From NCBI GenBank assembly GCA_963796105.1, contig CAWCKJ010000004.1:608001-672000 (forward strand): DNA of 64,000 nt, given 5' to 3'. Made by a program: the position numbers and the translations under genes. Each line of letters starts with the position of its first letter. Positions within the stretch are counted from its first letter, which is position 1. Origin of the DNA: a candidate division FCPU426 bacterium (GTDB taxonomy: Bacteria; Oederibacteriota; Muellerivitia; Muellerivitales; Muellerivitaceae). The notes beneath the pieces were generated by a model that was not told the DNA's origin, ran no database searches, and saw only the letters and a program-made list of their open reading frames with translations. This document shows positions 27,945 to 56,300 of the stretch, one piece after another.

Positions 27945-28932
27945 CATGCCTATCCGAACAACGCTTGCGCAGTAATGGGTTTTGCCAAAGCGCAAGCGGT
28001 TAAGGCCCGGTGAAATAAGGAATCTGGGTCATGGCGACGATTGAACCGATAAGTATATTCGCTCAAGTATCCAGGCAGATATTTCACGTTGACTCCATGA
28101 TGGGTTCCTAGGATCCAAGCCTTGGCGTTGGAAATGAATCGGTGGACCCAAGGTAACCAGTGATTTAACACCACTGGGTCATTGGCTGTTACCTGGTACT
28201 CCACATCCACGTTTTCCAAGTTTCTCAAGCTGGGACTGGCATCCGTGTTTATCATGGCGCCTTTCTGGATTGCTTGATCGACGAATGCTTGGGCTTCCCA
28301 CTTGGTTTCTGCGGTCACCTTTATCTTTGCAAAACCCGCTTTCTCTTTTTTGCGCCCTTTCTCATCTATCCATTCTTTGCTTTCAACCGCCACCAGCACT
28401 TCAGCCTGGTTTTCCTTTTCTCTCTTGCCGAATACAGCCCCATCCAACTCAATGATTTCCTTGAGTTGGTAATTTTCATCCCTTTGTCGAAGACTTTCCC
28501 GAATCTTATGCAACATCCTCCAAACGGTATCGTAGGAGGGCATTCCCAATTGCCGCTGAAGTTCCAGGGCTGAAATGCCCCTTTTCCCTTGCATCACCAA
28601 TCCAATCATCCTCAACCAGGTTAAGATTGGGATCTTGGATTTCCGGAAGATCGTTCCGGCTCGAAGCCGTATTTGCTTTCGACAATAGTCACATTCCCGC
28701 ACTTCGGGGCGGTTTTTGTGTTGCCAGAAACTTTCTCCTTCACATTGTGGGCAAACAAAGTCTTTTCCGGCAAAACGGCTCTTCCACACCCATTGACGTG
28801 CCTTTTCTTCTGTATCGATTTCCTTGAAAATCTCAATCCCCTTCATCCGTTGGTAGTTCATAATTTGCCCCTCCAACAATGAGTATACTCCTGTATTCCT
28901 TTATTTCAACAGGTACCGTTTGGAGAGGCATT
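27945..28932 (-). mobile_element. IS1595-family insertion sequence, copy 1
   Basis: 8-bp TSD TTCTATTA at 27937-27944 and 28933-28940; imperfect TIR CATGCCTATCCGAAC / AATGCCTCTCCAAAC. Confidence 0.9.
27950..28861 (-). CDS. IS1595-family (ISXO2-like) DDE transposase
   Basis: CPQC..CDYC zinc ribbon, GISALELQR HTH, IELDG, NTD, YLSEYTYRFNRR. Confidence 0.93.
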   Translation of the reverse strand: MNYQRMKGIEIFKEIDTEEKARQWVWKSRFAGKDFVCPQCEGESFWQHKNRPEVRECDYCRKQIRLRAGTIFRKSKIPILTWLRMIGLVMQGKRGISALELQRQLGMPSYDTVWRMLHKIRESLRQRDENYQLKEIIELDGAVFGKREKENQAEVLVAVESKEWIDEKGRKKEKAGFAKIKVTAETKWEAQAFVDQAIQKGAMINTDASPSLRNLENVDVEYQVTANDPVVLNHWLPWVHRFISNAKAWILGTHHGVNVKYLPGYLSEYTYRFNRRHDPDSLFHRALTACALAKPITAQALFG

Positions 28933-39493: not shown

Positions 39494-40479
39494 CATGCTT
39501 CTGTATTAAGTGACCCTTGAAATAAAGGAATACATAGGTATACTGTCCGCTACGGGAGGTGGTACATGAGCTACCAGCGGATGAAAAGCATTAAAATTCT
39601 GAGGAAAATCCACACGGAAGAAGAAGCCCGCCAATGGGTGTGGAGATGCCGTTTCGGCGGGAAAGACTTTGTTTGTCCCCAATGTGAGGGCGAAAGCTTC
39701 TGGCAACACCAGGCCAAGCCTGAAGTGAGGGAATGTGACTATTGCCGGAAACGTCTTCGGCTTCGCGCCGGGACGATTTTTGAAAGCTCCAAGCTGCCTC
39801 TTTTAACCTGGGTCAGGGCCATCAGTTTGATGATGCAGGGCAAACGGGGTATTTCGGCCCTGGAACTGAAGCGGCATTTAAATCTTTCGGATCATTCGGC
39901 ATGGCTTCTATTGCATAAGATCCGGGAAGGTCTTAGGCAAAAGGACGAAAGCTATACTCTAAAGGGCGTCATTGAGTTGGATGGGGCGGTTTTTGGGAAA
40001 AAGGCCAAGGAAAACCAAGTGGAAGTCTTGGTGGCGGTGGAAAGCAAGGAATGGGTGGATGAGAATGGTTGCAAGAAGGAAAAAGCGGGTTTTGCCAAGG
40101 TGAAGGTAGCTATGGAAACCAAGTGGGAGAGCCAGGAATTCGTGAATCAGACTATGGAAAAAGGCTCTTTCCTCAACACAGATGCTTCGCCAGCCTTGCG
40201 TGAACTCAAAGGAGTGGAGGCAGACTACCGGGTGATGGCCAATGACCCGAAAGAGTTGGAAAGTTGGTTGCCCTGGGTACACCGGTTCATTTCCAACGCC
40301 AAGGCCTGGATCATTGGAACTCATCATGGCGTTGATGCTAAGTATTTAGGCCGGTATCTAAGTGAATATGCCTATCGGTTCAACCGTCGTCATGATCCCG
40401 ATTCCTTATTTCACCGTGCTTTGACCGCATGTGCCTTAGCAAAACCCATTACAGCACGGTCACTTTGTGCATAAACATA
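39494..40479 (+). mobile_element. IS1595-family insertion sequence, copy 2
   Basis: 8-bp TSD TCCGATCG at 39486-39493 and 40480-40487; imperfect 22-bp TIR ending AAGTGACC; internal TTGAAA-N16-TATACT promoter shared with copy 1. Confidence 0.9.
39566..40474 (+). CDS. IS1595-family DDE transposase
   Basis: Clear paralog of the 27950 transposase; same motifs. Confidence 0.93.
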   Translation: MSYQRMKSIKILRKIHTEEEARQWVWRCRFGGKDFVCPQCEGESFWQHQAKPEVRECDYCRKRLRLRAGTIFESSKLPLLTWVRAISLMMQGKRGISALELKRHLNLSDHSAWLLLHKIREGLRQKDESYTLKGVIELDGAVFGKKAKENQVEVLVAVESKEWVDENGCKKEKAGFAKVKVAMETKWESQEFVNQTMEKGSFLNTDASPALRELKGVEADYRVMANDPKELESWLPWVHRFISNAKAWIIGTHHGVDAKYLGRYLSEYAYRFNRRHDPDSLFHRALTACALAKPITARSLCA

Positions 40480-40528
40480 TCCGATCGAGATTGACCTTTT
40501 CATGAAGGGTCCAATCCAGGGTCAACCT

Positions 40529-40906
40529 CTATTTTAAATAACCAAACACGATGTGAAATCCATTGCAATCTTCTATAAGGACTTCTCTTGTCCCATACTT
40601 CGTGTCGAGGGGACCGCGTGCGATTTTTACGTTTTTGGATTTAAGCTCTTCGGCCATGCCATCAACATCTTCAACCGCCAAAAACGCGTCATAACCCGTT
40701 CCGTGGACCGACCGGTTCGTTACGGCCAATCCCTTGGGAGACCTCACGAGGATGATTTCTACGGGGTCTCGATAGACCGGGACAAAGGGCTCGGGGCCAA
40801 ACCCTGCCCTCCCAATCCTGAAACCCAATTGATCCCGATAAAATTCCGCGGTTTTCTTTTCATCCGGAACCACGAAAACTGGTGCGATATTGGATATTTT
40901 AATCAT
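40529..40906 (-). CDS. VOC/glyoxalase family protein
   Basis: FYRDQLGF, VEDVD, YGTREVLIEDCNG. Confidence 0.88.
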   Translation of the reverse strand: MIKISNIAPVFVVPDEKKTAEFYRDQLGFRIGRAGFGPEPFVPVYRDPVEIILVRSPKGLAVTNRSVHGTGYDAFLAVEDVDGMAEELKSKNVKIARGPLDTKYGTREVLIEDCNGFHIVFGYLK

Positions 40907-40979
40907 TCGCGCCTCCAGCCATGACCCTCTCGCGAACAAGTCATTAATTCAACACTTAAAATTCGCAATTCAGCGGTCA

Positions 40980-41627
40980 TCAACCTTTTGGTTTGAAGAA
41001 TCTTAACGTCTTTAAAACGGCTTTTTCTGAATCGAATTGATCTTTTGTCACTTGCCTAATGCCGGCAAAATCAGTGGGGTAGGTCAGCAGGTATTCGTCG
41101 ATTTCAACCCAGCGGTTTTTCCCCCGATAAAAAAAATACTTGATTTCCTCATTGCCGCTGACGCAAATGACTTTCTCGCCGCAGAGTTTAAAGATTTTCG
41201 CGGTCGGAAACGCCTTGGTCCTCGCGCCAAAAGGCAAATGAACCGCCTGGTATAAATCCTTCATCGAGTACTCGAAAGGCAGCCCAACGAAACAATTTCC
41301 TTTCGTAAAATTATTGTTCCATTTATTGACGGTGTCATCCGTGAAAGTATAAATCGTCATCATGTACTTTCCGCAGGTGGTCGGAAGCTCGATTTCCTCC
41401 TCGGCGTACGCGTTTTGCTGCTGATGGGGGGGCACAATATTTTCTCCCGATGGATAATTGATCGAAAAACCGTATTTTCCATTCAAGAGGGTTTTCCACG
41501 TGGCGATGGCGTCGGGGTTTGTTAAATAATACCCCCCCTCTTGGGGCGGGTCGCAAAAGGCCAATGGGAATGGAAATACCAACAGGCTGGCCCAAAACAA
41601 AAACAAACAATTAAATGTGATTTTCAT
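40980..41627 (-). CDS. Secreted hypothetical protein
   Basis: Signal-like N-terminus from MKITFN; WKT..N.KYGFSINYP motif. Confidence 0.7.
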   Translation of the reverse strand: MKITFNCLFLFWASLLVFPFPLAFCDPPQEGGYYLTNPDAIATWKTLLNGKYGFSINYPSGENIVPPHQQQNAYAEEEIELPTTCGKYMMTIYTFTDDTVNKWNNNFTKGNCFVGLPFEYSMKDLYQAVHLPFGARTKAFPTAKIFKLCGEKVICVSGNEEIKYFFYRGKNRWVEIDEYLLTYPTDFAGIRQVTKDQFDSEKAVLKTLRFFKPKG

Positions 41628-41684
41628 GGAAGATCCAAACAAAACCTTTCTTACCTTGTCCACGCTTGCTCCCGGCCAAGGGTC

Positions 41685-41996
41685 TTATAAACCCAAGGCA
41701 AAAAAGAGGGCCTGCCGCACTTCCGACAGCTTTGAGGGGGGCAGTGTGGTGATGAGCCCGCCCAATTTCGCCTTCGGTACGGTCTGTATATGGTCGCAAT
41801 TGACGGCGCAATTCCTGGTCAAGCCGTCGTTTTGTCCCAATGGAACCTCACTTGGAATATTCCGTACGGTGGAAGTGAGGGGCGCTACCGTGACCTCAGC
41901 CAGGTATTCGATGATTGAATCCCGGGTCAGGATCAATACCGGGCGTTTCTTATCCGGGCGGGTGAATTGATACCAGCGAACCTCGCCCCGCTTCAT
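41685..41996 (-). CDS. mazF: PemK/MazF-family endoribonuclease toxin
   Basis: MKRGEVRW, KKRPVLIL, VAPLTS, NCDHIQTV. Confidence 0.92.
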   Translation of the reverse strand: MKRGEVRWYQFTRPDKKRPVLILTRDSIIEYLAEVTVAPLTSTVRNIPSEVPLGQNDGLTRNCAVNCDHIQTVPKAKLGGLITTLPPSKLSEVRQALFFALGL

Positions 41997-42226
41997 TCAT
42001 CGCCCCAGGCTTGTTCCTTCTCCCAAACCCCGGCTTCTTCCCTTGTGACCGGATGGGCCTTGTAGCCTTGACGATGCTGATCTTCCAATTGTCTCGTTTT
42101 CAGGTTGCGAAGCGCTTCCTTGAGGGCTGACCGGGTGAAAGCCGATCTGGTTGTCTTCAATCTCTTGGCGGCCTGATCCACCGACTTGACCAGGTCATTC
42201 TCCAACGTCATTTGAACCGTTCTCAT
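41993..42226 (-). CDS. Ribbon-helix-helix antitoxin (MazE/NdoAI-like)
   Basis: TVQMTL..DL...VD..A...TTRSAF.R.AL; ATGA overlap with the toxin. Confidence 0.88.
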   Translation of the reverse strand: MRTVQMTLENDLVKSVDQAAKRLKTTRSAFTRSALKEALRNLKTRQLEDQHRQGYKAHPVTREEAGVWEKEQAWGDE

Positions 42227-42239
42227 GCCGTTCTCCTTC

Positions 42240-42289
42240 AATAGCTATTACAATAGCTATGATTATATACATTTTAAAAATGTTTTCAA
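42240..42289 (-). promoter_or_regulatory. Sigma70 promoter and probable operator of the TA operon
   Basis: TTGAAA-N16-TATAAT followed by two ATAGCTAT palindromes. Confidence 0.65.
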
Positions 42290-42449
42290 GTATGGAGGCC
42301 AGTCCAATCACACTGAACTTCCCGAAAACCTGTTCCAATATCTTAAAAGCGCGTTTCCCCAGCGTATATTAAAACATGTTCCACAGGGTTTCCGGGCGTA
42401 TGAAATAACCTGATATAATATGACCTAAATCCTCGCCAACGGGTCAGAC

Positions 42450-44009
42450 ATGCTCATGCGAAAATCCCTCATCATTCCGGTGTTTTTTTTCGGGTTTGTC
42501 GCGCAAGCCCTCACATCAGCCCATGCCCAATGCCTCTACAGCGATTCACTGAACGAGGGCGCCCTGGCGGCCTTTTGGTCCGCGACCGACTTCAATACGG
42601 CTTTGGCGGGCGCCGGCACGCAAACGGAAGGCACAGCCCTCACCATCACCAGCGCGGACAACAATATCGTCACGGGTTCCGCGTCCGATTCCTTCCATTT
42701 CGTTTACCAGGAAGCCTCAGGCGACGCGGATATCACCCTGGAGATCGACAGCGCGCCCCCCCAGATCAACGGAAAAGTCGGAATCATGATGAGGGAACAG
42801 CTCACGACCAACTCTAATTTCGCGGGTATTTTCGCCTCCACGGGAATAGATTATCTTTTCAAGTACAGGACCACGGCGGGCGGGAACTCCGTGGAAGTGG
42901 ATTCCGCGACCTTGTCCCAATTCCCCAGCTATGTCCAATTGTCTCGGTCGGGGAATGTTTTTTCCGCTTATTACTCCCCGGATGGCGCCGCCTGGACCCT
43001 CGTCGCCACCCAAAGCGTCACCATGGCCTATCCCTATTACGTCGGCATCGCCGTCTGCGCCGCGAACAGTACCACCCCCGGTTCCGGCGTCGTCAATAAT
43101 TTCGCCGTGGTCTCAGGGGACAGCTGTACCTCGACCCCCACGCCTACCAACACAGCAACCGATACCCCGACTCCCACGGTTACCCCCACCCCCTCGCCGA
43201 CCTTAACCCCCACGATCACCCTATCCCCCACCCAGACCCAAAACCTCTCCCCGACGGCCACCCCCACGAAGACCTGGACCCGAACCCCCACCTCCACTTG
43301 GACCTTCACCTATTCCTATACCCCGGCCTACACTTTCAGCTTTACGGTCACTCCCACCATGACCTTGAGTCCCACCGACAGCCCCACTCTCACCCCCACC
43401 ATTACGGATACGCCGACTGACACTTCCACTGACACGCCATCCCCCACCGACACGGCCACTTTCACGGACACCCCCAGCCCCACGCCGACCAACACATGGA
43501 CCAATACGAATACCCCTTCATACACCCCAACCTTTACCCCTACACCCACGAACACCGCGACCAGCACATCCACGGATACAATGACCTATACAAACACCCC
43601 GTCCTACACCCCCACTAACACCTTTACCTTCACTTACACCCTGACCTTCACCCCCACCCCTACCCCAACCCCCACGCCCACGGTCTATTTGACGCCGACT
43701 TTTACCCTTTCGCCGACATCGACCCCGAACGCGGCCCTTTACCTGGACGCGAATTTCTTCAATCCGGACCAGGCCCCGTTGGGCATGGATGTGCGCGTGG
43801 ACCAGGGGGGCGGGGTCAATATCTTGGTTTTCAACCTGGCGGGCGAGGAAGTGCGCAAAATCAAGGATGAGAGCATGTCCGCCGGGAACTACCGTTCCTC
43901 CTGGGACGGGAAGAACAACGTAGGCGCCGTCGTTGGAAACGGCGTTTATTTCATCATCATCGACCAGCCCTCGGGCCGTACCACCCGGAAAGCCGTCGTC
44001 TTGAGGTAG
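42450..44009 (+). CDS. Exported protein: ConA-like (DUF1349-type) head, Pro/Thr stalk, FlgD-Ig CTD
   Basis: AHA-QC signal; FHFVYQ..SGD, KVGIMMRE, LSRSGNVFSAYYSPDG; VFNLAGEEV..WDG..GNGVYF..RKAVVLR. Confidence 0.85.
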   Translation: MLMRKSLIIPVFFFGFVAQALTSAHAQCLYSDSLNEGALAAFWSATDFNTALAGAGTQTEGTALTITSADNNIVTGSASDSFHFVYQEASGDADITLEIDSAPPQINGKVGIMMREQLTTNSNFAGIFASTGIDYLFKYRTTAGGNSVEVDSATLSQFPSYVQLSRSGNVFSAYYSPDGAAWTLVATQSVTMAYPYYVGIAVCAANSTTPGSGVVNNFAVVSGDSCTSTPTPTNTATDTPTPTVTPTPSPTLTPTITLSPTQTQNLSPTATPTKTWTRTPTSTWTFTYSYTPAYTFSFTVTPTMTLSPTDSPTLTPTITDTPTDTSTDTPSPTDTATFTDTPSPTPTNTWTNTNTPSYTPTFTPTPTNTATSTSTDTMTYTNTPSYTPTNTFTFTYTLTFTPTPTPTPTPTVYLTPTFTLSPTSTPNAALYLDANFFNPDQAPLGMDVRVDQGGGVNILVFNLAGEEVRKIKDESMSAGNYRSSWDGKNNVGAVVGNGVYFIIIDQPSGRTTRKAVVLR

Positions 44010-44046: not shown

Positions 44047-44249
44047 TGTCCACTGCGCCAAGCTGTACCGATCATCCATAAAAACATATTGAGATCGGTA
44101 CAATACCAACCTCAATAATCTTTCGTGGAAGGCTGGCATGGGGGCGGCAATGAACCATCGGTGCGATGATTTCCCCACCCCGGTCGAGCCAATAAATTCA
44201 AAATTTAAAACTCAAAATTCATCATTGTTCTACTACCCCCCCGTGGACA
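44047..44249. repeat. TGTCCAC...GTGGACA-bounded intergenic element
   Basis: TGTCCACTGCGCCAAGC left arm; AGCCAATAAATTCAAAATTTAAAA module; CCCCCCGTGGACA right arm. Confidence 0.6.
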
Positions 44250-44346
44250 GTTTTTGCTTTATTGACGTTTTGTTTGGGAAAAGGGTTGAATTTTTAAAAT
44301 CACTTTCTAAGATAACGCACCTGCACTTATTTAAAAAGGATCGCTT

Positions 44347-46574: not shown

Positions 46575-48680
46575 CTACCTGAGAACGATCACTTTTCTTA
46601 TCAATCTTCCGGACGCTTCCTCGATGATCACGAAATAAACGGCGTTCCCCACGATAACGCCATCATTGTTGGTCCCATCCCACTGGACCCTGTAATTGCC
46701 AACGCCCCTGTATCCGTCCATGACCTTCTTGACTTCCTCCCCAGCGATGTTGAAAACCTTGATTTTGACGCCGCCGGCTTGATCCACCCTCACGTCCATC
46801 CCCAAGGGGCCCTTGTCGGGATTGAAATAGTTGACGTCCAAGTACAACTCGGCATTCGGGGTGTTCGTAGGCAGCGGGGTATTAGTGATGGTGAAGGTGT
46901 CGGTGATGGTTGGCGTTTGGGTCAGCGTGGGTGTGTTTGTGGGAGTCGGGGTGTTTGTGGCTGTGGGCGTCGGGGTGGCGGTGTAGGCGGAGGTCGGGGT
47001 CTCAGTCGCTGTTGAAGTATTGGTCGGGGTGTAAGTGAAGGTATAAGTGTAAGTGGGAGTGTATGACGGGGTGTTCGTATAGGTCATTGTATTCGTGGAT
47101 GTGCTGGTCGCGGTGTTCGTGAGTGTAGGTGAATAGGTATAGGTAAATGAAAAAGTAGGCGTAGCCGTGGGGGTGTCTGACGGCGACGGGGTAAAGGTAG
47201 GCGTCGGGGTTTGGGTTGGGGTATTGCTGGACGTGGCCGTTTTGGTCGGCGTGTTCGTCTGCGTGGGCGTATTGGTCCAGGTGTTCGTAGCGGTGGGTGT
47301 CGATGTATTCGTGACCGTTGGCGTGTAGGAAAGGGTATTAGTAGGCGTATTGGATGGCGTATCGGTCGGTGTGTCCGACCATGTGGGCGTGTCAGATGGA
47401 ATATCAGTCGGTGTGGCGGTTGGCGTGTAGGAAACAGTATCTGTCGGCGTGTTGGATGGGGTATCGGACGGCATTTCCGTCTGAGTGGGTGTATTGGTCC
47501 AGGTGTTCGTAGCGGTGGGTGTCGATGTATTCGTGACCGTTGGCGTGTTGGAAAAAGTATTCGTCGGCGTATTGGAAATCGTGGGTGTCGGCGTCAATGT
47601 CGGTGTATCGGATGGCGTATCGGTCGGCGTGTCCGACCATGTGGGCGTAACCGTAGCCGTGTTGGTCGGCGTCGGGGTGGCCGAAGGGGTGAAGGTTGGC
47701 GTGATGGTCGGTGTAAAAGAGTTTGTGGAGGTAGCGGTAGGCGAAGCGGTAGGGGTAGCCGAAAAAGTCGGTGTTGCCGAACCCGTTGGGGTATTGGTGG
47801 GGGTTCGAGTCGGGGTATAGGTGGGGGTCGGAGTCGGGGTGGGGGTCGGACCGCCGCTCAAAATTTCGACAGCCCAGCCATACCCGGTCGACGACATATT
47901 GTTGGGGTTGAAGCTCTGGCTGATGCTGACGGCTGACGTGGTCCCGGGCGAATAATCGCCGAAAGCAAAGCCTAACGAGTCAGAACCCATCGTGGCCGGG
48001 GTCAGGGGAAATTGACCGGCGCCATTGACCACGGCGTAACTGCCAGGATTCGTGCTTCCCTGCGTCAAAAGCACCTGAAGAATCGTGCTGGTGGAACTCA
48101 ATGGCGTGAAACTAAAGGAAACAGTCGCGGGTGTGCTGTTGGCCGGGCTAGTGACGTAATTCGTGGCGTTGACGCTGGTCGCGCCGATGGGGGACGCGCT
48201 TGCCGCGTTGCTGTAGGTCCACCACTCGTATCTCCAGGAACAGGAACTGTTGCCGCAGGCCAAACCCGTGCTGCCCCCGGCGATGGTCAGCGCGTGGGCG
48301 GACGCGGGGTTCGCGATATAGTAAAGAGACCGGTACGCGGTTTGGCTGGCCGCGTACGTGATGGGGCCGCCCAGGCTTGTCATCGCGGCGCCGTTATAAG
48401 TGATCGTGCCGGGCGTTGTCCCCCAAAAGGAGCCGTCAGCCTCAAGCAAGACGAACAAAACATAACTGCCCCCGGCGGAGGCGCCGAAATTGAGGGCGGA
48501 AACGGTGACACCGAGGCTGGTCAAGGAAGATGAAACCGTCGCGTCGCTGTCATAGCTGGAAACGGCGGCTTTGGCGTTTCCAGCGGAAAAAACCAGGACC
48601 AGGAATAATAAGGCGGCGATTAGTTTTGACCCCATTCGGGCTCTTGGGCTCTTCGCGCGGGGGGATATCGCAAACGTCAA
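46575..48680 (-). CDS. Exported protein: unknown head, Pro/Thr stalk, FlgD-Ig CTD (start codon uncertain)
   Basis: Signal ending [44 protein letters not shown]. Confidence 0.83.
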
Positions 48681-49078
48681 TAAAAACTTAGGTAAAAGGG
48701 TTAACTTGAGTAGGACAAACTTTTTCTTCGCTATGATGAGCTCGCAAAATATGTTTTCGGGGTGAGTGAATTAAGAAATGGTAATTACCTGTAATTATAT
48801 CAGATTCCCCCCATCTCGGAGACCGTTGGAAATCGCCTTAAAACAACCCAAATCCGGGATTTCCCCGATGACCTGCCCCGAGTGTCATCGAGGCCCTGCC
48901 ACTCGCTGTGCCGATTTACAATAAGATGGTAATAGAAATCGGTACTATGCCAGCCTCACTATTGGGCTTATCGTAGGCTGGTATGCGGTGCGAGGGGGCT
49001 TTCTCTTGTAACATTGCCGCGGTGTAATGAGATCCCCGCCGTGGATAACTTAATAAACTTGCCCAATTTTCTGTTCAT

Positions 49079-49786
49079 TCATTTCTTCCCAGCCAGGTTC
49101 TTCAGGAACTGTTCCATCTCGTGGTTGGCGGCATCCCAAAAGGAATTGAAAATCTGGTGTTGGAAGGAGTCGCAGCCGTTCGCCTGCCAAAGGAGGCTTC
49201 CATCCCTCGTGGAAATAAGGAAAAGCTCGAATGCACCCACCTTGTTGTAACCCCGCGTGAACGTGGCGTCGTCCCGTTCCAGGATGGACTGCCGGCGGAA
49301 GTAATCGATCATCTTTCCATCCATGTTTTCACGGATCTTGACGGGACAGCCGAAAGTCCCGTAATAATCGATGATTCCCACCAAGGCATAGGGCTTTCCA
49401 CCGGAGAGCGCGGAAAGTCTTTCAGCGCTGAAGGGATACTTGCCCGGTTGATCGGGGCGGAACACATGAAGAAGTAATGCGCCCTGGTCGGCCGCGGCGG
49501 CGGGAACGGCTTCCACCGTGAGGTCCCATTTTTTCGCGTTTTTCAACAGGGCGGCTTGGACCTCCGAAACGGCTTTGTCCGCGGAGGGTATTTCGGTCAA
49601 CGGGGCCTGAAGAAAGGTTTTTTTACTTCCCGTCTGCCAAATTTTACTGGATCCGTAAAAACTGCCCAAATACGCGATATCGCCCGCCGGTACGGTGAAC
49701 CCGGGCGCCGGGCTGTAAATTTCATTCGGCCAAGCGTTCGCGAAAGATAAAAAAAAGAAGATTAAAGATAAAAAAGACAGCTTCAT
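49079..49786 (-). CDS. Secreted hypothetical protein
   Basis: GGAGG RBS before MKLSFL; signal peptide. Confidence 0.72.
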   Translation of the reverse strand: MKLSFLSLIFFFLSFANAWPNEIYSPAPGFTVPAGDIAYLGSFYGSSKIWQTGSKKTFLQAPLTEIPSADKAVSEVQAALLKNAKKWDLTVEAVPAAAADQGALLLHVFRPDQPGKYPFSAERLSALSGGKPYALVGIIDYYGTFGCPVKIRENMDGKMIDYFRRQSILERDDATFTRGYNKVGAFELFLISTRDGSLLWQANGCDSFQHQIFNSFWDAANHEMEQFLKNLAGKK

Positions 49787-49896
49787 AAAGGCCTCCATTT
49801 GGTAAATAAGCGGTTTATCATTTCCTCTCTTTGATATTCCAATTTGGAATATCAAAGTTTTACTCTTTTCTCAGTTAGATACCATTCTAATCTGCC

Positions 49897-50111
49897 TGTC
49901 CACGATCCCCGCGCCAAGCCGACCCGTCTCCGACGTGTGTCCCGAAGCTTGAGTGTAGGGATAAGATTGAGCTCAGGGACAAGTCTTGACGTAGGGAGAG
50001 GAGCTTAAATCTTTATTTGTGGACAAGCCAAACAATTCAAAACCTGGCCCCGAGTCACATCGAATGGTTTAAAATTCAGAATTGTTGTACTTCCCCTCGT
50101 CGTAGTGGACA
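49897..50111. repeat. Compound TGTCCAC...GTGGACA...GTGGACA element
   Basis: Left arm with GCGCCAAGCC; GTGGACA at 50019 and 50105; 23 bp identical to 51654-51676. Confidence 0.65.
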
Positions 50112-50129
50112 ACTTAAATCGCTGTTTTT

Positions 50130-51167
50130 TTATCCTTTGGCCGAAGGCAATCGGTAACTAGCGGATTTCGTGCTTCCGGCCTTAGCCACCAACCCCGCCT
50201 TCACCAGCGGTTTCATTAATTTGCTGAAATTGGACCGCGATATTTTGAGCGCAATGGCCATTTCCCCGCCCGGCATGGAAGCGACAGCCCCTAAAGTCCT
50301 CAAAATTTGTTCTTGTTGGCGGTTCAACAATATTCGTTTTGCCCGCGTGCCGGCCCGAAGAACCTGAATTCTCCGTTGTGTTTTTCGGAGGGTTTCCACC
50401 ACGCCTTCCGCTACGTATTCCAGCCAGGAAGTCAGATTGTCCGCCTCCTTCCTGACTTTTTGAATTTGCCAGTAATACCTCGGCCGGTCTGTTTCAAAAA
50501 ACTCGTCCAACGCGAAGATGTGGTGCGTATCGAAACCTTTTCGGTAGAGAACCCAGGATTCCAAAGCCCGGGCCAAGCGCCCGTTTCCATCCATCACGGG
50601 ATGGATGGACACCAATCGGTGGTGGACAACCGCGGCCACAACGAGGACATGTTCCTTCCGTGCCTGGGTGGATCCGATCCAAGCCAATAGGCCCCTTGTC
50701 AGAATGGGAGCGGCCTCCGGGGGCGGCGGGCGGTAAATCACTTCCCGTCCCTTGAAAACCGCGTTAGGCGCCTTTTTATAAACACCCGCATCCGCCGCGG
50801 GAATGGTGCCCGCCGTTAACAAACCGTGCATTTTGAGAAGGTCTTTTTCGGCGACAGCCCTTCGCGGGCTCTTTTGCCAAATCCACCTCAAGGTTGCGAG
50901 ATAGTTCAAGACTTCGCGTTTAGCCTTAGCCTCAATTTCCAGGTCCTTTCCCTCGGCGAGGGCCCGCACTTCCGGCAGGGTCAAGGGATTTCCTTCTATC
51001 CGGGTTGAATAATGAGCCAATCGGGCGATAGTGTCCCGTTGGATCTCGGCAATCCAGGAAACGTCCACGGATTGCTGTTGAATCCAAGTCCTCAATTCCG
51101 CCGCCAAGGTTAGTCGTCGGACGAAATCAGGGGATCTCTCAAATTTCGGATGATAGGTAAGAATCAT
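50130..51167 (-). CDS. Fic family protein with N-terminal inhibitory motif and C-terminal HTH
   Basis: STRIEGN; HPVMDGNGRLAR. Confidence 0.92.
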   Translation of the reverse strand: MILTYHPKFERSPDFVRRLTLAAELRTWIQQQSVDVSWIAEIQRDTIARLAHYSTRIEGNPLTLPEVRALAEGKDLEIEAKAKREVLNYLATLRWIWQKSPRRAVAEKDLLKMHGLLTAGTIPAADAGVYKKAPNAVFKGREVIYRPPPPEAAPILTRGLLAWIGSTQARKEHVLVVAAVVHHRLVSIHPVMDGNGRLARALESWVLYRKGFDTHHIFALDEFFETDRPRYYWQIQKVRKEADNLTSWLEYVAEGVVETLRKTQRRIQVLRAGTRAKRILLNRQQEQILRTLGAVASMPGGEMAIALKISRSNFSKLMKPLVKAGLVAKAGSTKSASYRLPSAKG

Positions 51168-51241
51168 GAAAACAGCCTATCGGGGGATAATTTAATTGTC
51201 AACTAATTGTTTCCATATTTGTTTCGAACCCTGTAAACTCT

Positions 51242-51268
51242 TATCCACGAAGGCCCCCGTCGTGGACA
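51242..51268. repeat. Short TATCCACGA...TCGTGGACA hairpin
   Basis: 9-bp stem, 7 bp from the stop of the 51276 gene. Confidence 0.6.
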
Positions 51269-51275
51269 GGACCAT

Positions 51276-51572
51276 TTAAGTTTTTTTAGTCCGTTTTGCA
51301 AAATAAGCTTTAACGGCGGTTTCCGGACTTTCTACGGGTGGCAATCCTAAGACGGTCGCGAAATTCGCTTTCTTCCTTGCCTCAAAATACCATCCATAGG
51401 CCTGTTTTGCTGTCGGATGGTCTTTTAGTTCAAAGACTTCCACCAATCCTTCCCAAGCGGTCCTGTTTTGGTAAACCTCTTTTACCCATGCCGACTTAAG
51501 ATGCTTTGCCTCGCATGAAAATTTCCGCTTAATTGCGGATGTAAGGGCCTCAAGGTATTCCGTGTTATCCAT
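51276..51572 (-). CDS. Conserved hypothetical protein
   Basis: WEGLVEVFEL..HP.A..AYGW..VL..PPVESP..AVKA pattern. Confidence 0.75.
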   Translation of the reverse strand: MDNTEYLEALTSAIKRKFSCEAKHLKSAWVKEVYQNRTAWEGLVEVFELKDHPTAKQAYGWYFEARKKANFATVLGLPPVESPETAVKAYFAKRTKKT

Positions 51573-51605
51573 TTATCTTTCTGACACCTGTCTTTCGATT
51601 AATTT

Positions 51606-51691
51606 CCCACTCCACGTCGGCTCCCCGTCGCGAGTAAGCCAACTCATTCAAAATTTAAAATTCAGAATTGTTGTACATCCCTCCTCGCGGG
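51606..51691. repeat. Degenerate copy of the dispersed intergenic element
   Basis: AAGCCAACTCATTCAAAATTTAAAATTCAGAATTGTTGTAC. Confidence 0.6.
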
Positions 51692-54163
51692 TTATTTCTC
51701 TTCCGGCTCGTCCAAACCCTCAAGTTTCTTTTTCGAGGTTTTATTCCCATGGGCTACGGCTTTGGTAAACCACCGCGAGGCTTCCTTCTTGTCCTGGGGG
51801 ACACCCAGGCCTTCCTCGTAAAGTTTGCCGATGACCAATTCGGCCCTGCCTAAACCTTTTTCATCCGCCTTCAGGAACCACTTCATGGCCTCCTGGTAAT
51901 CCTGGGGTACGCCATGGCCGTCCCGGTACATAATCCCGATATTCACCATGGCATTGGCGTGACCTTGGCCCGCGGATTTTTGGTACCACTTCATGGCTTC
52001 CTGGTAATCCTGGGTGACGCCCTGGCCTTTCTCATAAAGTTTGCCGATGACCAATTCAGCCCTGCCGAACCCTTTTTCATCCGCCTTCAGGTACCACTTC
52101 ATGGCCCCCTTGTAATCCTGGGGTACGCCATGGCCGTCCCGGTACATGATCCCGATATTCACCATGGCATTGGCGTGACCTTGGCCCGCGGATTTTTGGT
52201 ACCACTTCATGGCTTCCTGGTAATCCTGGGTGACGCCCTTTCCATACTCGTACAGGCAGCCAATATTGTTTAGACCGGAGGAATTCCCATGATCGGCGGC
52301 CTTTTGGTACCACTTCTTGGCTTCCCCGTAATCTTGGGGAACGCCTCTGCCATGCTCATAGAGGCAGCCAATATTACACTCAGCGATGTTATCCCCTTGT
52401 TCAGCGGCCTTCTGGTACCACTTTATGGCTTCTTGGTAATCTTGGGTGACTCCACGGCCATCGTCATATAGAACACCCATATCGCGTTCCGCAATTGCGT
52501 TTCCTTGGTCAGCGGATTTTCGATACCATTTCAGGGCTTCTTGAATATCTTGTGAAACACCTTTCCCAGTCTCGTAGCTATACCCAATACAGCATTCAGC
52601 GTCCGAGTTCCCCTTTTCCGCGGCTTTATGGAACCATTTCATGGCTTCCTGGTAATCCTGGGAAACGCCCCTTCCATTGGAATATAAATCGCCAATATCA
52701 TAATCGGCATCAGCGATTCCTTGTGCGGCGGCCTTCTGGTACCACTTCATGGCTTCTTGGTAATCTTTTGGAATGCTCCATCCCTTTTCATAAAAAACGC
52801 CGATATTGCATTCAGCCCCCCCATTACCTTTCTCAGCGGCTTTCTGGTACCATTTCATCGCTTCCTGGTAATCTTGGCTGACGCCCTCGCTTTTCACGTA
52901 CATAAGACCTATATGAAATTCAGCCTCGGCTGACCCATGGGCGGCGGCCTGTTGACACCACTTCATGGCTTCCTTGAAATCTTGGGTTACGCCATTACCG
53001 TTTTCATACAACCCACCGATATTGTTTTCAGCATCAGCGATCCCTTGTGCAACGGCCTTTTGGTACCACTTCATGGCTTCCTGGTAATCTTTTGGAATGC
53101 CCAATCCCTTTTCATAAAAAACACCGATATTGTTTTCAGCCCTCCCATTACCTTTCTCGGCGGCCTTCTGGTACCACTTCATGGCTTCCTGGTAATCCTG
53201 GGTTACGCCAAACCCTTGGGAATAAAGACTGCCAATCATAAATTCCCCGCCCGAATCCCCTTGCGAGGCGGCCTTTTGGTACCACTTCATGGCTACCTGG
53301 TAATCCTTTTTTACCCCAGTGCCCTTTTCATAATGCCAGCCTAAATTGACCTCGGCTCTTGCCAATCCGGAATCTTCCCGGTAGAGGACCCCGAAATTCC
53401 CGCCAAAAGGATAAGAATGATCATTCCCTCGGTTAGCGGCGTCCTTAAACCATTTCATGGCTTCCTGGTAATCCTGGGTAACACCCATTCCATTCTCAAA
53501 TAAAAAACCAATGTGCATTTGGGCGATCGGTTCATCTCGTTGCGCGGCTTTTCGATACCATGTCATGGCCTCTTGGTAATCCTGCGCGACTCCCAGTCCA
53601 TGCTCGTAGAGACTGCCTATATTGTCCTGAGCGATTGCGAATCCCTGCTCCGCGGCTTTTTGATACCAATTCATGGCTTCTTGGTAATTACGGGTAACGC
53701 CAAATCCTCTGGAATAAAGAAATCCTAATTCGTCTTGGGCTATCGCATTTCCTTTTTCAGCCGCTTTTCGGTACCAATTTAATGCTTCCTTGTAATCCTG
53801 GGTAACACCCCGGCCTTTTGTACAAAAAATACCGACATTACATTCTGCGGATACGTCCCCCTGCATTGCCGCTTTTTGGAACCATTTAAAGGCTTCCTGG
53901 TAATCCTGGGTCACCCCCATACCTTTCGAATATAGCCAGGCAAGTTTGTTTTGGGCTTTTACATTTCCCAGATCAGCGGCTTTTCGGAACCACTCTTGGG
54001 CTTGGCCGTAATCTTTTGCCTTAAGGGCTTCGTCCCCTTTGTTTAAATCCACAAAATCCTCGGGATCAGGGTCAACTCCAGCCCGCAACGCGGGTTGGTT
54101 GTATAAGAAAATTCCAATCGCCAGGATTAACATACAGGGTCTAACAGCGAATATATTTTTCAT
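51692..54163 (-). CDS. Secreted Sel1-like repeat protein (about 20 repeats)
   Basis: 36-aa repeats G.GV.QDYQEAMKWYQKAA.QG; signal peptide. Confidence 0.95.
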   Translation of the reverse strand: MKNIFAVRPCMLILAIGIFLYNQPALRAGVDPDPEDFVDLNKGDEALKAKDYGQAQEWFRKAADLGNVKAQNKLAWLYSKGMGVTQDYQEAFKWFQKAAMQGDVSAECNVGIFCTKGRGVTQDYKEALNWYRKAAEKGNAIAQDELGFLYSRGFGVTRNYQEAMNWYQKAAEQGFAIAQDNIGSLYEHGLGVAQDYQEAMTWYRKAAQRDEPIAQMHIGFLFENGMGVTQDYQEAMKWFKDAANRGNDHSYPFGGNFGVLYREDSGLARAEVNLGWHYEKGTGVKKDYQVAMKWYQKAASQGDSGGEFMIGSLYSQGFGVTQDYQEAMKWYQKAAEKGNGRAENNIGVFYEKGLGIPKDYQEAMKWYQKAVAQGIADAENNIGGLYENGNGVTQDFKEAMKWCQQAAAHGSAEAEFHIGLMYVKSEGVSQDYQEAMKWYQKAAEKGNGGAECNIGVFYEKGWSIPKDYQEAMKWYQKAAAQGIADADYDIGDLYSNGRGVSQDYQEAMKWFHKAAEKGNSDAECCIGYSYETGKGVSQDIQEALKWYRKSADQGNAIAERDMGVLYDDGRGVTQDYQEAIKWYQKAAEQGDNIAECNIGCLYEHGRGVPQDYGEAKKWYQKAADHGNSSGLNNIGCLYEYGKGVTQDYQEAMKWYQKSAGQGHANAMVNIGIMYRDGHGVPQDYKGAMKWYLKADEKGFGRAELVIGKLYEKGQGVTQDYQEAMKWYQKSAGQGHANAMVNIGIMYRDGHGVPQDYQEAMKWFLKADEKGLGRAELVIGKLYEEGLGVPQDKKEASRWFTKAVAHGNKTSKKKLEGLDEPEEK

Positions 54164-54219
54164 CGCTTAATACCTTTCTTCATTTACTCCTAAATTAACG
54201 TCCCCTCAGGGTTCCCGGA

Positions 54220-54494
54220 TTGGACACGCTAATCAATTCAAAATTTAACAATCAAAACCCGTCCTGAACATGCCGAAGGATTGAGCTTTTGTATAATCCT
54301 TCATTCATAATTTGAAATTGTATTTGAACTTCCCTCCCCTGAATCGCAGCCACAAGCCGCGGTTCACTCTTTGGGTGTGCCAATTCACCTTAAAGCAGGT
54401 GATGGAATTGGTACTATACCGAACTTTCATTGAAAGCTTTAATGAGGTTCGGCATGTGCCGGTTCAATAATGGAACCGGCCCCCATCGTGGACA
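54220..54494. repeat. Intergenic cluster: AT-rich module, REP-like hairpins, CCCCATCGTGGACA
   Basis: TTGGACACGCTAATCAATTCAAAATTTAA; GTCCTGAACATGCCGAAGGA; GCCGGTTC/GAACCGGC stem. Confidence 0.5.
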
Positions 54495-54498
54495 TGGT

Positions 54499-54864
54499 TT
54501 AGCGGGCCTTTAAAACCTTGCGTTGATCGAAAGGGTTGAAGCCGAAAGGCTTGCAAATCTTTAGGATGCTTCCGAACTTCGGGTCTCTATTCTTGGCGAG
54601 TACCCGATAGACACTCTCCCGGGGCATACCCGATTGTTTCGACAACCATCCCACCCCGCCATGGGCTTCCGCAACGTCCCGAAGGGCAAGCTGGAATACG
54701 GATCCGTTGCCGTCGTCTAAGCTTCGATCGTAGGCTTCACGCAAATATTCCCGGGCTTCTTGTGGATCGCTTAGTTTTGAAAGAAGGTAATCTTTAAAAT
54801 CCCCTTCCGCTTGGTATTTCTTTTTCTTAATGGCCGTATTTTTCACGATTCCCCCCTTATTCAT
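54499..54864 (-). CDS. Addiction module antidote (HTH antitoxin)
   Basis: EAREYL, ALRDVAEAHGG..LS..SG..RES.YR.L...DPKF. Confidence 0.88.
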   Translation of the reverse strand: MNKGGIVKNTAIKKKKYQAEGDFKDYLLSKLSDPQEAREYLREAYDRSLDDGNGSVFQLALRDVAEAHGGVGWLSKQSGMPRESVYRVLAKNRDPKFGSILKICKPFGFNPFDQRKVLKAR

Positions 54865-55186
54865 TTCTCGCTTTGTGGTCTTTCAAGTATTTACGTGCGG
54901 TCGCGATATCCCTGTCTTGACCCCTTTTTGTTCCTCCGCTCAATAGCAAGACGATGAAACCCCTGACCCAGGTGTAATAAACCCTATAGCCTGGCCCCAT
55001 ATTGATCTTGATTTCGTGAAGACCACCGCCTTTGTTCTCGCAATTACTATAGTTACCTTCCCTTACGCGGCCGATGTAGGTGAGAACAGTGGCACGAGGT
55101 CCCCGGTCCAACGAATCCAACCATTCACGAACAGGGTATTTGCCGTCCTTCGTCAGATAATCCTTCATACCTTGAGGTTTATCCAT
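54857..55186 (-). CDS. RelE/HigB-type addiction module toxin (toxin-first)
   Basis: DGKYPVREWL, GN, LHEIKI..GPGYRVY, LLLSGGTK..QDRDI. Confidence 0.9.
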   Translation of the reverse strand: MDKPQGMKDYLTKDGKYPVREWLDSLDRGPRATVLTYIGRVREGNYSNCENKGGGLHEIKINMGPGYRVYYTWVRGFIVLLLSGGTKRGQDRDIATARKYLKDHKARNE

Positions 55187-55191
55187 GCCTT

Positions 55192-55221
55192 AAATGTAAC
55201 ACTTGTGTTACATCTTTTCAA
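55192..55221 (-). promoter_or_regulatory. TA promoter with palindromic operator
   Basis: TTGAAA-N17-TACATT overlapping ATGTAACAC-tt-GTGTTACAT (55194-55213). Confidence 0.75.
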
Positions 55222-55347
55222 TAGTTTATTGTTTCCTTCGTTTCTCCGCCGCGGACAACCACGATAACCTTTCGTTCTTATAATGGTTTAAAATTGCGGA
55301 CATCATTCTTTAAATCTTTCCAAACCAATCCGTCTGAAGTTGCGGGA

Positions 55348-56300
55348 TTAGGGGTCGATCTTCAAGCCGATGGAAAAATACCCGCTGTCAATATAACCAT
55401 CCATGGAAAACTGCCGGGAGGTAAAAGTTTCCAAACTGTTGGCCTCGAAATAAAGGGCGAGGCCCTCCCCCGCCTTGACGTCGATTCCAAGCCCCAGCCG
55501 CAGGGCGAAATCCGTCTCGTTGATGCCGGGAGAAGAATAGGGATTCCCGTAAATATCCGTCAGGGTCATGGCATCGATCGAAAGAAGGGTGGGTCCGATG
55601 CCGCTGATCAAATAAAAGTCCACGGAACTGCCCTGCCCGGCCAAAATGAACCTGCCGTTCACTAAAAAAGTAAAGTTGGAGATACCGCCCCCGAGGCGCT
55701 CTCATACTCATAAGGGGAGATAATGTTCTGGGGGAAACTGCAGTATTGCCCGCTGAGGACAAGGGAGGTCATCCGGTTCAAACCCACTCCGTAACCAAAT
55801 CCAAAGCTCGGGCCGGTGGTCCAGTTGGTCGCAAACCCGGCCGGGTTGGTGGGCATCGACCACCCGCCGTTTAAATAAATGGAGTTGAAAATTTGCTTGT
55901 GGGCGGCATGGCCGATCATGGGAAGGGGCGGCAACGGACCGTGGCTGGCCGGGGGGTTGTCCGGCGCCGCCTCGATTTCAGGGGCCGGCATCGACACGGC
56001 TTTTAATTTATCGACGAACGCCTGGAGTTTGGGATTATTCGGGTTGATGTCCAGGCTGGATTCGCAATTCGAAAGGCATTTTTGGGTGTCGTTGAGGCGG
56101 TAATAGGCGTAACCCATGTATTGGTAGGCTTGCCAATCACCGGGGTTCGACTGGACGACTTGCTTGAAATAAGCGATGGCATTCCGCCAGTTCCCCGCCT
56201 GGTATTGTTCTACGCCCACGTGGAAGTTGTCCGCCGCCGCGGCACCGTATCCGTAAAATGGGAACAGGCACAAAACCAGCACCGCCAATAGCTTTTTCAT
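55348..56300 (-). pseudogene. TPR + outer-membrane beta-barrel protein split by a single frameshift
   Basis: ORFs 55662..56315 and 55348..55662; one extra G in the G5 run (55688-55692) gives a continuous SASGGGISNFTFLVNGRF. Confidence 0.7.

Follow-up and report, generated by a model that had tools for sequence, protein, structure and literature searches.

Organization of the gene run and its repeats

The window analysed here, a stretch of 64,000 nucleotides from a candidate division FCPU426 bacterium (assembly GCA_963796105.1, contig CAWCKJ010000004.1, positions 608,001 to 672,000 of the forward strand), carries a run of minus-strand genes between 49.0 and 55.3 kb. The run is considered here as a probable decayed array of mobile gene cassettes bounded by a 30-bp site, for which a short serine recombinase of related genomes is the candidate enzyme. 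It comprises genes for a hypothetical protein of 235 amino acids (aa), a Fic protein, a 98-aa hypothetical protein, an 823-aa Sel1-repeat protein and a RelE/HI1420-type toxin-antitoxin (TA) pair, followed by a split TPR gene. A preliminary description, made from the letters alone, had proposed that every gap in this run holds a member of one repeat family, and that the repeats, which do not match the attC sites of integrons, may serve for recombination in a gene-capture system not yet described that acts in trans. Indeed, each of the six gaps between 48.7 and 55.35 kb contains a full or half site, always on the plus strand and opposite to the genes. The features of the run, in window positions, are the following.

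49019..49048, plus: half site at the left end of the array; TC core and right arm (17.6 bits) are intact, unrelated sequence stands in place of the left arm
49079..49786, minus: hypothetical protein as cargo (235 aa counted from ATG), without a match in Pfam or NCBIfam; genomes G018 and G006 have DNA homologs at other places
49896..49925, plus: left-arm remnant of a site (left arm 7.0 bits), centre deleted
50019..50092, plus: right-arm remnant (GTGGACA), then AT-rich heptamer module (50026-50092), interrupted by other sequence
50083..50112, plus: decayed site, 17 bp off the Fic stop codon
50130..51167, minus: cargo, Fic/DOC protein
51240..51269, plus: least decayed site of the window, with both arms, and short of one base close to the centre
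51276..51572, minus: cargo, hypothetical protein, 98 aa, no family match
51608..51637, plus: decayed site, full length
51638..51690, plus: AT-rich heptamer module (separate repeat family)
51692..54163, minus: cargo, Sel1-repeat protein, 823 aa
54198..54227, plus: decayed site, full length
54466..54495, plus: half site, right arm intact, 3 bp off the antitoxin stop codon
54499..55186, minus: cargo, type II TA pair; RelE/ParE-type HI1419 toxin (54857-55186) and HI1420-type antitoxin (54499-54864)
55229..55258, plus: decayed site, the last one detected on the right
55348..56297, minus: TPR protein in two open reading frames (ORFs)

The left and right arms, which had been listed separately, are real repeats, but both proved to be halves of one 30-bp site. 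Left arms of the form TRTCCAC at 49897 and 51242 are exact. All five right arms quoted (49041, 50105, 51262, 54488, 55251) keep GYGGAYA, while the full pattern CCCCRYCGYGGAYA given for them occurs in only three (49034, 51255, 54481), and two further sites, at 51608 and 54198, had been overlooked. Distances of the sites from stop codons are 30, 17, 6, 54, 3 and 89 bp, four of the six within 30 bp, as had been noted for most of them. The AT-rich module shows the reported 23-bp identity between 50068 and 51654 exactly, but belongs to a separate, genome-wide heptamer repeat family (94 matches) that lies outside the site.

The background was set by 200,000 random positions of contig C4, with 99.99th percentiles of -6.9 bits for the whole site and 7.9 bits for the right arm. 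The best site in each gap of the window exceeds the whole-site value. Copies in the window are among the most decayed of the genome, five of them scoring 17-21 bits versus up to 44 elsewhere.

Sequence, copy number and distribution of the site

A position weight matrix was seeded on 28 exact matches in the genome that contains the window (4.98 Mb in 16 contigs). It converged on a 30-bp near-palindrome of 14-2-14 organization, with the consensus TTGTCCACGACGGG-TC-CCCGTCGTGGACAA and 77 copies in this genome. Raw matches at a threshold of at least 16 bits numbered 109, compared to 3 in the reversed genome, and 88 compared to none at 20 bits. Both arms follow one consensus and the centre is the best conserved part of the site, with the central TC present in 435 of 466 sites; positions 12-14 are other than GGG in 94 of these. 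Variants of the left and right arm show little covariation beyond that of shuffles. No conserved tag or flanking bases were found around 306 sites, and no positional enrichment of a promoter at a fixed distance was detected in 539.

Of 30 family relatives, 27 carry the site pattern, as does the single order relative; none of 67 other genomes of the phylum does. An exact scan through one genome per species across bacteria and archaea disclosed 54 loci in nine assemblies; one record title names Candidatus Firestonebacteria, one reads Alphaproteobacteria, and most are unclassified. The site had no matches in viral contigs, and the window segment from 38 to 60 kb had none in Rfam.

In the window genome, 63 of 73 sites are intergenic according to our own gene calls, and 51 of 73 have both neighbouring genes directed against the TC strand. 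When a stricter matrix was used (56 sites), 80% of sites had a neighbour within 5 kb, whereas 1000 random draws of gaps gave 10% on average and 29% at most. The whole-genome scan suggested in the preliminary description thus shows the sites to be both clustered and intergenic. The median site score of 31 bits in this genome, versus 40-46 in nine other genomes with more than 20 sites, is not used as evidence, the window genome having been scanned whole and the others fetched around strong sites.

Group II introns target the site. The 5' end of an intron abuts the left edge in 18 of 629 sites (examples are G000:C7:118493, where G000 is the window genome, and L205, L221, L224 and L454), and one intron splits the site that follows the recombinase gene in genome G018 (L152:11155-13125, G018:C9). 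Introns that target attC sites are a parallel. A tRNA origin of the site, considered because of a T-loop-like stretch at C2:259650, was rejected, as ARAGORN calls no tRNA there.

Array anatomy and cargo

Arrays were compared in regions fetched around sites rather than in whole genomes. The 366 intervals between sites have a median length of 828 bp, and 317 of them contain either one gene (219) or two (98). Adjacent cassettes are separated by one site, neighbouring sites are co-oriented in 378 of 404 cases, and 507 of 543 cassette genes run against the TC strand, with the stop codon at a median distance of 19 bp from the site and the start at 58 bp. Among the cargo of two genomes (86 of 104 proteins scanned), many TA proteins were identified, together with GNAT, HAD, NHL and TPR proteins and many unknowns. 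Arrays that open with a site whose left half is junk and close with one whose right half is junk were only weakly seen (7 of 42 first sites versus 15 of 164 middle sites, right-junk sites being rare), and this pattern was abandoned.

Several genes of the window have counterparts in other arrays. Pairs related to its HI1419/HI1420 TA pair are cassettes in G011 and G023, and Sel1 genes are cassettes in G019 and in two further arrays of the window genome. An 82% identical copy of the Fic gene lies among other genes in the sister genome G001, without an intact flanking site; the upstream sequence common to both copies stops a few bases short of the site at 51240. At the orthologous locus in G001, sequences diverge after window position 48846 and no array is present.

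Cassette borders and the crossover point

Among 328 intervals, 61 pairs of homologous cassettes (at least 80% of both lengths) were found across arrays or genera, all in the same orientation; two of these pairs represent one shared two-cassette block. Median identity in the 60 bp just inside the cassette ends is 0.77 and 0.72, and just outside it is 0.47 at both, which is the background for that scoring. Identity reaches 99.7% across 798 bp in one pair, whose members come from genera g2 and g11, and 100% across 973 bp in another. Shared cassettes begin and end inside sites, in the way the preliminary description had envisaged for borders of gene gain and loss. Cassettes bounded by the 30-bp site are, in our assessment, very probably mobile.

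The crossover was mapped on 629 distinct sites. In 20 pairs with only the right flank in common, 74 differences fall at positions 1-14, one at 15-19, and eight at 20-30. The 31 pairs with only the left flank in common have 11, 0, and 48 differences in the same intervals; 32 of 63 pairs were dropped from this left-flank count since their flank is the end of a group II intron. In a 446-bp stretch compared between G001 and G042, differences are confined to site positions 1, 6, 8, 10, 13 and 14 and to the last base. At the level of sequence comparison, these patterns show that either half of a site moves together with the DNA next to it, and that the switch lies at positions 15-19. Positions 15-19 are nearly invariant, so the crossover was narrowed no further. 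The TC core on the dyad axis lies within this interval, and exchange at the central dinucleotide would be consistent with the mapping, although not resolved to two bases.

Tyrosine recombinases need an identical spacer of 6-8 bp, and serine recombinases use a 2-base core. Differences at positions 13-14 are therefore hard to reconcile with a tyrosine spacer, and fit the serine core. Contigs of two DNA runs (0.07 share) covered 11 of 30 bins and revealed no joint at a site, a result uninformative on excision.

A short serine recombinase adjoining the site

The array in genome G002 starts 33 bp after a gene for a 278-aa protein with Resolvase and Recombinase domains (PF00239 and PF07508). The same two domains make up 19 database proteins of 275-283 aa (74-100% identity), all of them lacking the zinc ribbon (PF13408). 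This short set is split from other relatives by a score gap (432 versus 358 bits), and the catalytic motifs YVRVS and DRLYR are invariant in it. A quick tree places it as one clade among longer relatives, with a Shimodaira-Hasegawa-like approximate likelihood ratio test (SH-aLRT) value of 100. The ratio of nonsynonymous to synonymous substitution rates (dN/dS) in 15 pairs of the clade ranges from 0.054 to 0.184, some dS values being near saturation. Monophyly and low dN/dS together indicate that the truncation is old and maintained. The fold of the predicted structure matches serine integrases, at a predicted local distance difference test (pLDDT) value of 64. Two 289-aa relatives, P0020 and P0026, form their own clade outside the short one and possibly represent a second truncation.

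A site in the same orientation follows 7-35 bp past the gene end in 7/7 intact copies and in 6/6 partial copies that keep the 3' end. The intact copies include one split by a group II intron and one cut by a contig end, and three fragments without the 3' end could not be scored. At loci of longer relatives, a site was found in 0/101. A candidate serine recombinase thus adjoins the same site in relatives, of the kind that the preliminary description had suggested looking for. Genome G042 holds four copies of the recombinase 3' end in which the same left arm is joined to four different right arms.

No upstream site was observed at the intact recombinase genes examined, which identifies the gene as the end of a platform and not as cargo. 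The recombinase is transcribed towards the array and the cassette genes point back at it, while the enzyme-proximal site is an ordinary one, with no distinct attI found. The gene is found downstream of a VirB4-type transfer region in G001 and of homologous genes in G042; in G018, G042 and G045 it is near genes which we take to be ArdC-like. In one subclade, a 13-bp palindrome comes after the stop codon of the recombinase gene and ahead of the first site (L426:2335-2347, L232, L091, L164 and G000:C6:187399-187411), and may be an operator.

Dimensions of the site can be compared with those known for the LI integrase. According to PMC3783163, its recombinase domain contacts an area of 13 bp, touching bases at half-site positions 9-11, and its zinc domain reads positions 16-24. 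In the 30-bp site, a conserved outer block occupies positions 8-13 of the 14-bp half. By analogy, a half-site of 14 bp is what would be expected for an enzyme without the zinc domain. Deletion of the coiled coil makes the LI integrase promiscuous but inefficient at intermolecular recombination, as stated in PMC5499577, and this supports equivalent sites.

Proposed mechanism and points against it

We propose, with a probability of about 0.75, that the window holds a decayed cassette array, and that the cassettes are moved at the central two bases of the site by the short serine recombinase, whose gene lies elsewhere, on a conjugative element. Following serine integrase biology, a dimer would bind each site through the recombinase domain. 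Pairing of two sites would be followed by cleavage at TC/GA, staggered by 2 bases, and then by rotation and rejoining. Sites in direct repeat would release a circle with one rebuilt site, which could enter any other site in an orientation set by the asymmetric core. Loss of the zinc ribbon and the coiled coil would remove the distinction between attP and attB, making all sites equivalent.

The arrays likely represent a second, independently evolved integron-type system, in which a reduced large serine recombinase would act reversibly on one symmetric 30-bp site and the pool of cassettes would be spread by conjugative elements. No prior description of such a system was found in the literature searched (titles and abstract openings, mostly outside subscription journals and without supplements). 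The original suggestion, a gene-capture system not described before that acts in trans on sites other than attC, is supported by cassette borders inside sites, by clustering, by the lack of any match to the integron integrase IntI at its cut-off in 41 genomes, and by the adjoining recombinase.

A number of observations weigh against this proposal. The short recombinase would act on the site, and no activity, binding or excised circle was observed. In the window genome the recombinase was not found, except for a 75-bp gene tail beside a site at C6:187.4 kb. Intact copies occur in 5 of 31 family genomes, compared to 28 of 31 that carry the site, and no match to the short enzyme was obtained in the site-rich genomes G006 (98% complete), G011 (99%), G022 (90%) and G023 (89%). 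A mobile enzyme and enzyme-less clusters would account for this patchiness, but that is no proof. Quality of the predicted structure is modest, and the coiled-coil deletion of the LI integrase is also a caution that integration is not guaranteed. The 8 and 11 mismatches in the crossover mapping fall on the side expected to be shared, and the site pairs are not independent. Near arrays, one-armed sites nearly always keep the right arm (64 versus 14), an excess not accounted for by symmetric integration at secondary sites. Finally, no control against the collapse of arrays with equivalent sites was identified.

A possible carrier is present in the window genome. The segment C14:3892-25532 is 97.5-99.95% identical to the VirB4-bearing conjugative-type element that, in G001, runs on to the recombinase gene; the segment ends 1.4 kb before that gene. 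The break falls on a short Thr-Pro repeat motif and may be a real rearrangement or a misjoin; it too counts against the proposal. It appears that the window genome lost the enzyme gene, or that the gene is unassembled, and that sites in the window are drifting in the manner of an integrase-less attC cluster; loss of the enzyme would explain their decay.

Three further loci of this genome were observed. A conjugative-type element at C5:7153-25126, 86-93% identical to that of G001, has a six-site array directly after its transfer genes. The TA cassette G000:C6:186542-187441, 90% identical to L147:7884-8683 in G018, has an unusual direction and carries the recombinase gene tail. A 510-aa serine recombinase, 54% identical to the short one, is encoded at G000:C6:129455-131046, its 3' end overlapping the 3' end of a tRNA-Gln(CTG) gene on the opposite strand.

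Alternative explanations

Mobile cassettes could also be the work of another enzyme. It is unlikely that the sites are of serine type and are served by the 510-aa relative or by an unrecognised protein, with the short form as helper or passenger. The short gene is missing from the assemblies of most site-rich genomes, the window genome keeps the 510-aa relative, and a coiled-coil-less integrase integrates poorly (PMC5499577). Against this, long relatives have no site nearby, either in the 101 loci mentioned above or in family loci; they are likewise missing from G006, G011, G022 and G023, and the short clade is under strong purifying selection with intact catalytic residues. Still less probable is movement of the cassettes by the single Xer-like tyrosine recombinase of the family, as for the pdif modules of Acinetobacter, with the serine enzyme merely adjoining the sites. 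Of 24 family relatives, 23 have the Xer-like gene (G000:C3:368882-369841), and so does the one order relative, but none of 15 other phylum members does (E<=1e-30), a range that matches that of the site far better than the range of the serine enzyme does and hence also counts against the latter; any core gene of the family would, however, show the same range. The site can also be read as 12-6-12 or 11-8-11. Within the 6-8-bp spacer required by such an enzyme, however, lie the departures from GGG at positions 12-14, and the same cassette half is joined to left arms that differ at positions 13-14. The Xer gene moreover has a conserved AT-rich dif-like motif of its own at its flanks, which is unrelated to the site, and in 18/18 Xer loci examined no site was detected.

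Explanations that dispense with a new recombination system fare worse. We regard it as very improbable that the palindrome is a repeat of the repetitive extragenic palindromic (REP) type or of the MITE (miniature inverted-repeat transposable element) type, a terminator, or a regulator box that gathers in accessory regions while genes move otherwise. An extragenic palindrome of 20-40 bp just downstream of genes does resemble REPs (PMC3733652), and the window genome has 16 Y1 transposase matches, a few about 2-6 kb from sites by their coordinates. This reading is largely refuted by the homology of shared genes, which ends inside the site, and by the reassortment of site halves. Neighbouring sites are co-oriented and not inverted, and a conserved flank tag is missing. 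None of 13 terminator-like matches between 48.7 and 55.5 kb is a site, Rfam gave no match, and the scarce arm covariation argues against selection for a hairpin. The REP/MITE, terminator and uptake-sequence alternatives named in the preliminary description accordingly fit poorly. A divergent integron, with an unusual attC processed by an integron integrase, is the least credible option. Array anatomy and cargo (TA pairs, GNAT and unknown proteins) do match integrons, yet the integron integrase profile TIGR02249 reached its cut-off in 0/41 genomes (best 92 versus 265 bits), the site is conserved in sequence, and the crossover is central. RYYYAAC...GTTRRRY pairs, searched as a simple pattern, were present in 0/6 gaps of the window and 7/366 cassette ends, in line with the earlier statement that the repeats are not attC.

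Tyrosine recombinases of the window genome were also considered. The inspected ones among 36 PF00589 matches belong to tRNA-linked islands, recombinase trios and a mobile XerCD-like pair, and none consistently heads arrays. Of these enzymes, the Xer of the family was taken seriously as a candidate up to the finding that it has a flanking motif of its own. This single-copy gene is accompanied by one or two inverted copies of the dif-like motif (G000:C3:368700-370150, L250-L270), and most family genomes have no match at the level of canonical XerC/XerD; the gene and its motif may form a dif system with a single recombinase that has not been described. Neither GC skew nor a dif-like pattern indicated a clear terminus in the window genome.

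Comparison with known systems

To our knowledge, integrons, the textbook gene-capture arrays, without exception work with a tyrosine recombinase and with attC sites in folded form. The arrays described here have the same architecture by means of a different site and probably a different enzyme family, and would show that cassette arrays evolved more than once.

Resemblance to integrons and to attC site clusters without an integron integrase (CALINs), as presented in PMC9024848, extends to co-oriented cassettes of one or two genes and one site between neighbours just past the stop codon. It includes cargo rich in TA and unknown genes, cassettes found across genera, an enzyme gene that ends some arrays and many enzyme-less clusters. 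Differences are the absence of IntI, a 30-bp site conserved in sequence where attC is variable in sequence and conserved in structure, exchange at the site centre and no distinct attI. In addition, the candidate serine recombinase faces the array and the cassette genes point back at it, in contrast to a Pc-like arrangement. With large serine recombinases (LI/A118, phiC31, Bxb1 and SPbeta; PMC3783163 and PMC5499577), the candidate enzyme shares catalytic and recombinase domains and the fold, and the site shares inverted arms around an asymmetric central dinucleotide. Unlike them, 19/19 short proteins lack both zinc ribbon and coiled coil, half-sites are 14 bp instead of 25, and dozens of equivalent sites per genome with gene arrays replace one attP/attB pair.

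The pdif modules of Acinetobacter (PMC6449649) are similar in that short palindromes bound accessory modules, including TA pairs, that near-identical copies occur across species, and that the enzyme acts in trans. Sites of pdif are 28 bp long in an 11-6-11 layout, their centre varies, XerC and XerD bind them, and a title cited there calls them inversely oriented, whereas the 30-bp site has a conserved centre and a single arm consensus, and forms direct repeats on chromosomes. REPs and their associated RAYT transposases (PMC3733652) are likewise small, high-copy extragenic palindromes downstream of genes; the 30-bp site differs in having no GTAG/CGTC tag, in not forming inverted dimers and in bordering mobile gene units.

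The model in which the zinc ribbon and coiled coil provide directionality to serine integrases can be tested directly here, since purifying selection acts on a natural enzyme of two domains whose associated site is as large as the footprint of the recombinase domain. If the proposed assignment is true, this would be the smallest serine enzyme with a recombinase domain and the shortest site, and a candidate for a Cre/lox-like tool. The arrays are also a store of uncharacterised accessory genes invisible to attC-based tools. The value of the window is that of a snapshot of a decaying array, apparently without its enzyme.

Other features of the window

The range of 49030..55350 initially assigned to the array is too narrow, since decayed cassettes occur also to the left of it.

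41656..42329, minus: decayed cassette, RHH antitoxin and PemK/MazF toxin (41685-42241), site remnants at 41656-41685 and 42300-42329
44172..44250, plus: AT-rich module (44172-44241), then right-arm half site (44221-44250)

Both remnants of the first of these align with sites bounding the same TA cassette in G001, G013, and G023. A glyoxalase gene and a hypothetical gene (40529-41627) adjoin it, with a left-arm remnant at 40496, and the region 40496-41627 probably represents more decayed cassettes. On the right, no site was detected on the far side of the TPR gene, included in the array by the preliminary description, and its cassette status is therefore not established; its two ORFs are probably one frameshifted gene.

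The AT-rich heptamer tandem module is intergenic, and in the window genome it also fills ORF-less units of 50-70 bp between two close sites. The unit at 50019..50092 is likely a decayed ORF-less mini-cassette of this kind. A further copy of the module lies at 54228-54259. Fragments of other palindromic repeats are found within the same gaps (48870-48900, 49935-50010, 50045-50067 and 54255-54290).

Outside the array, the window encodes several very long Thr-Pro repeat proteins (35-27934, 42450-44009 and 46575-48680), with a C-terminal FlgD Ig domain in both of those scanned; the one at 22-28 kb is seemingly split over several frames. Two related IS1595-type transposases are located at 27950-28879 and 39566-40474, the second of which was profile-scanned.

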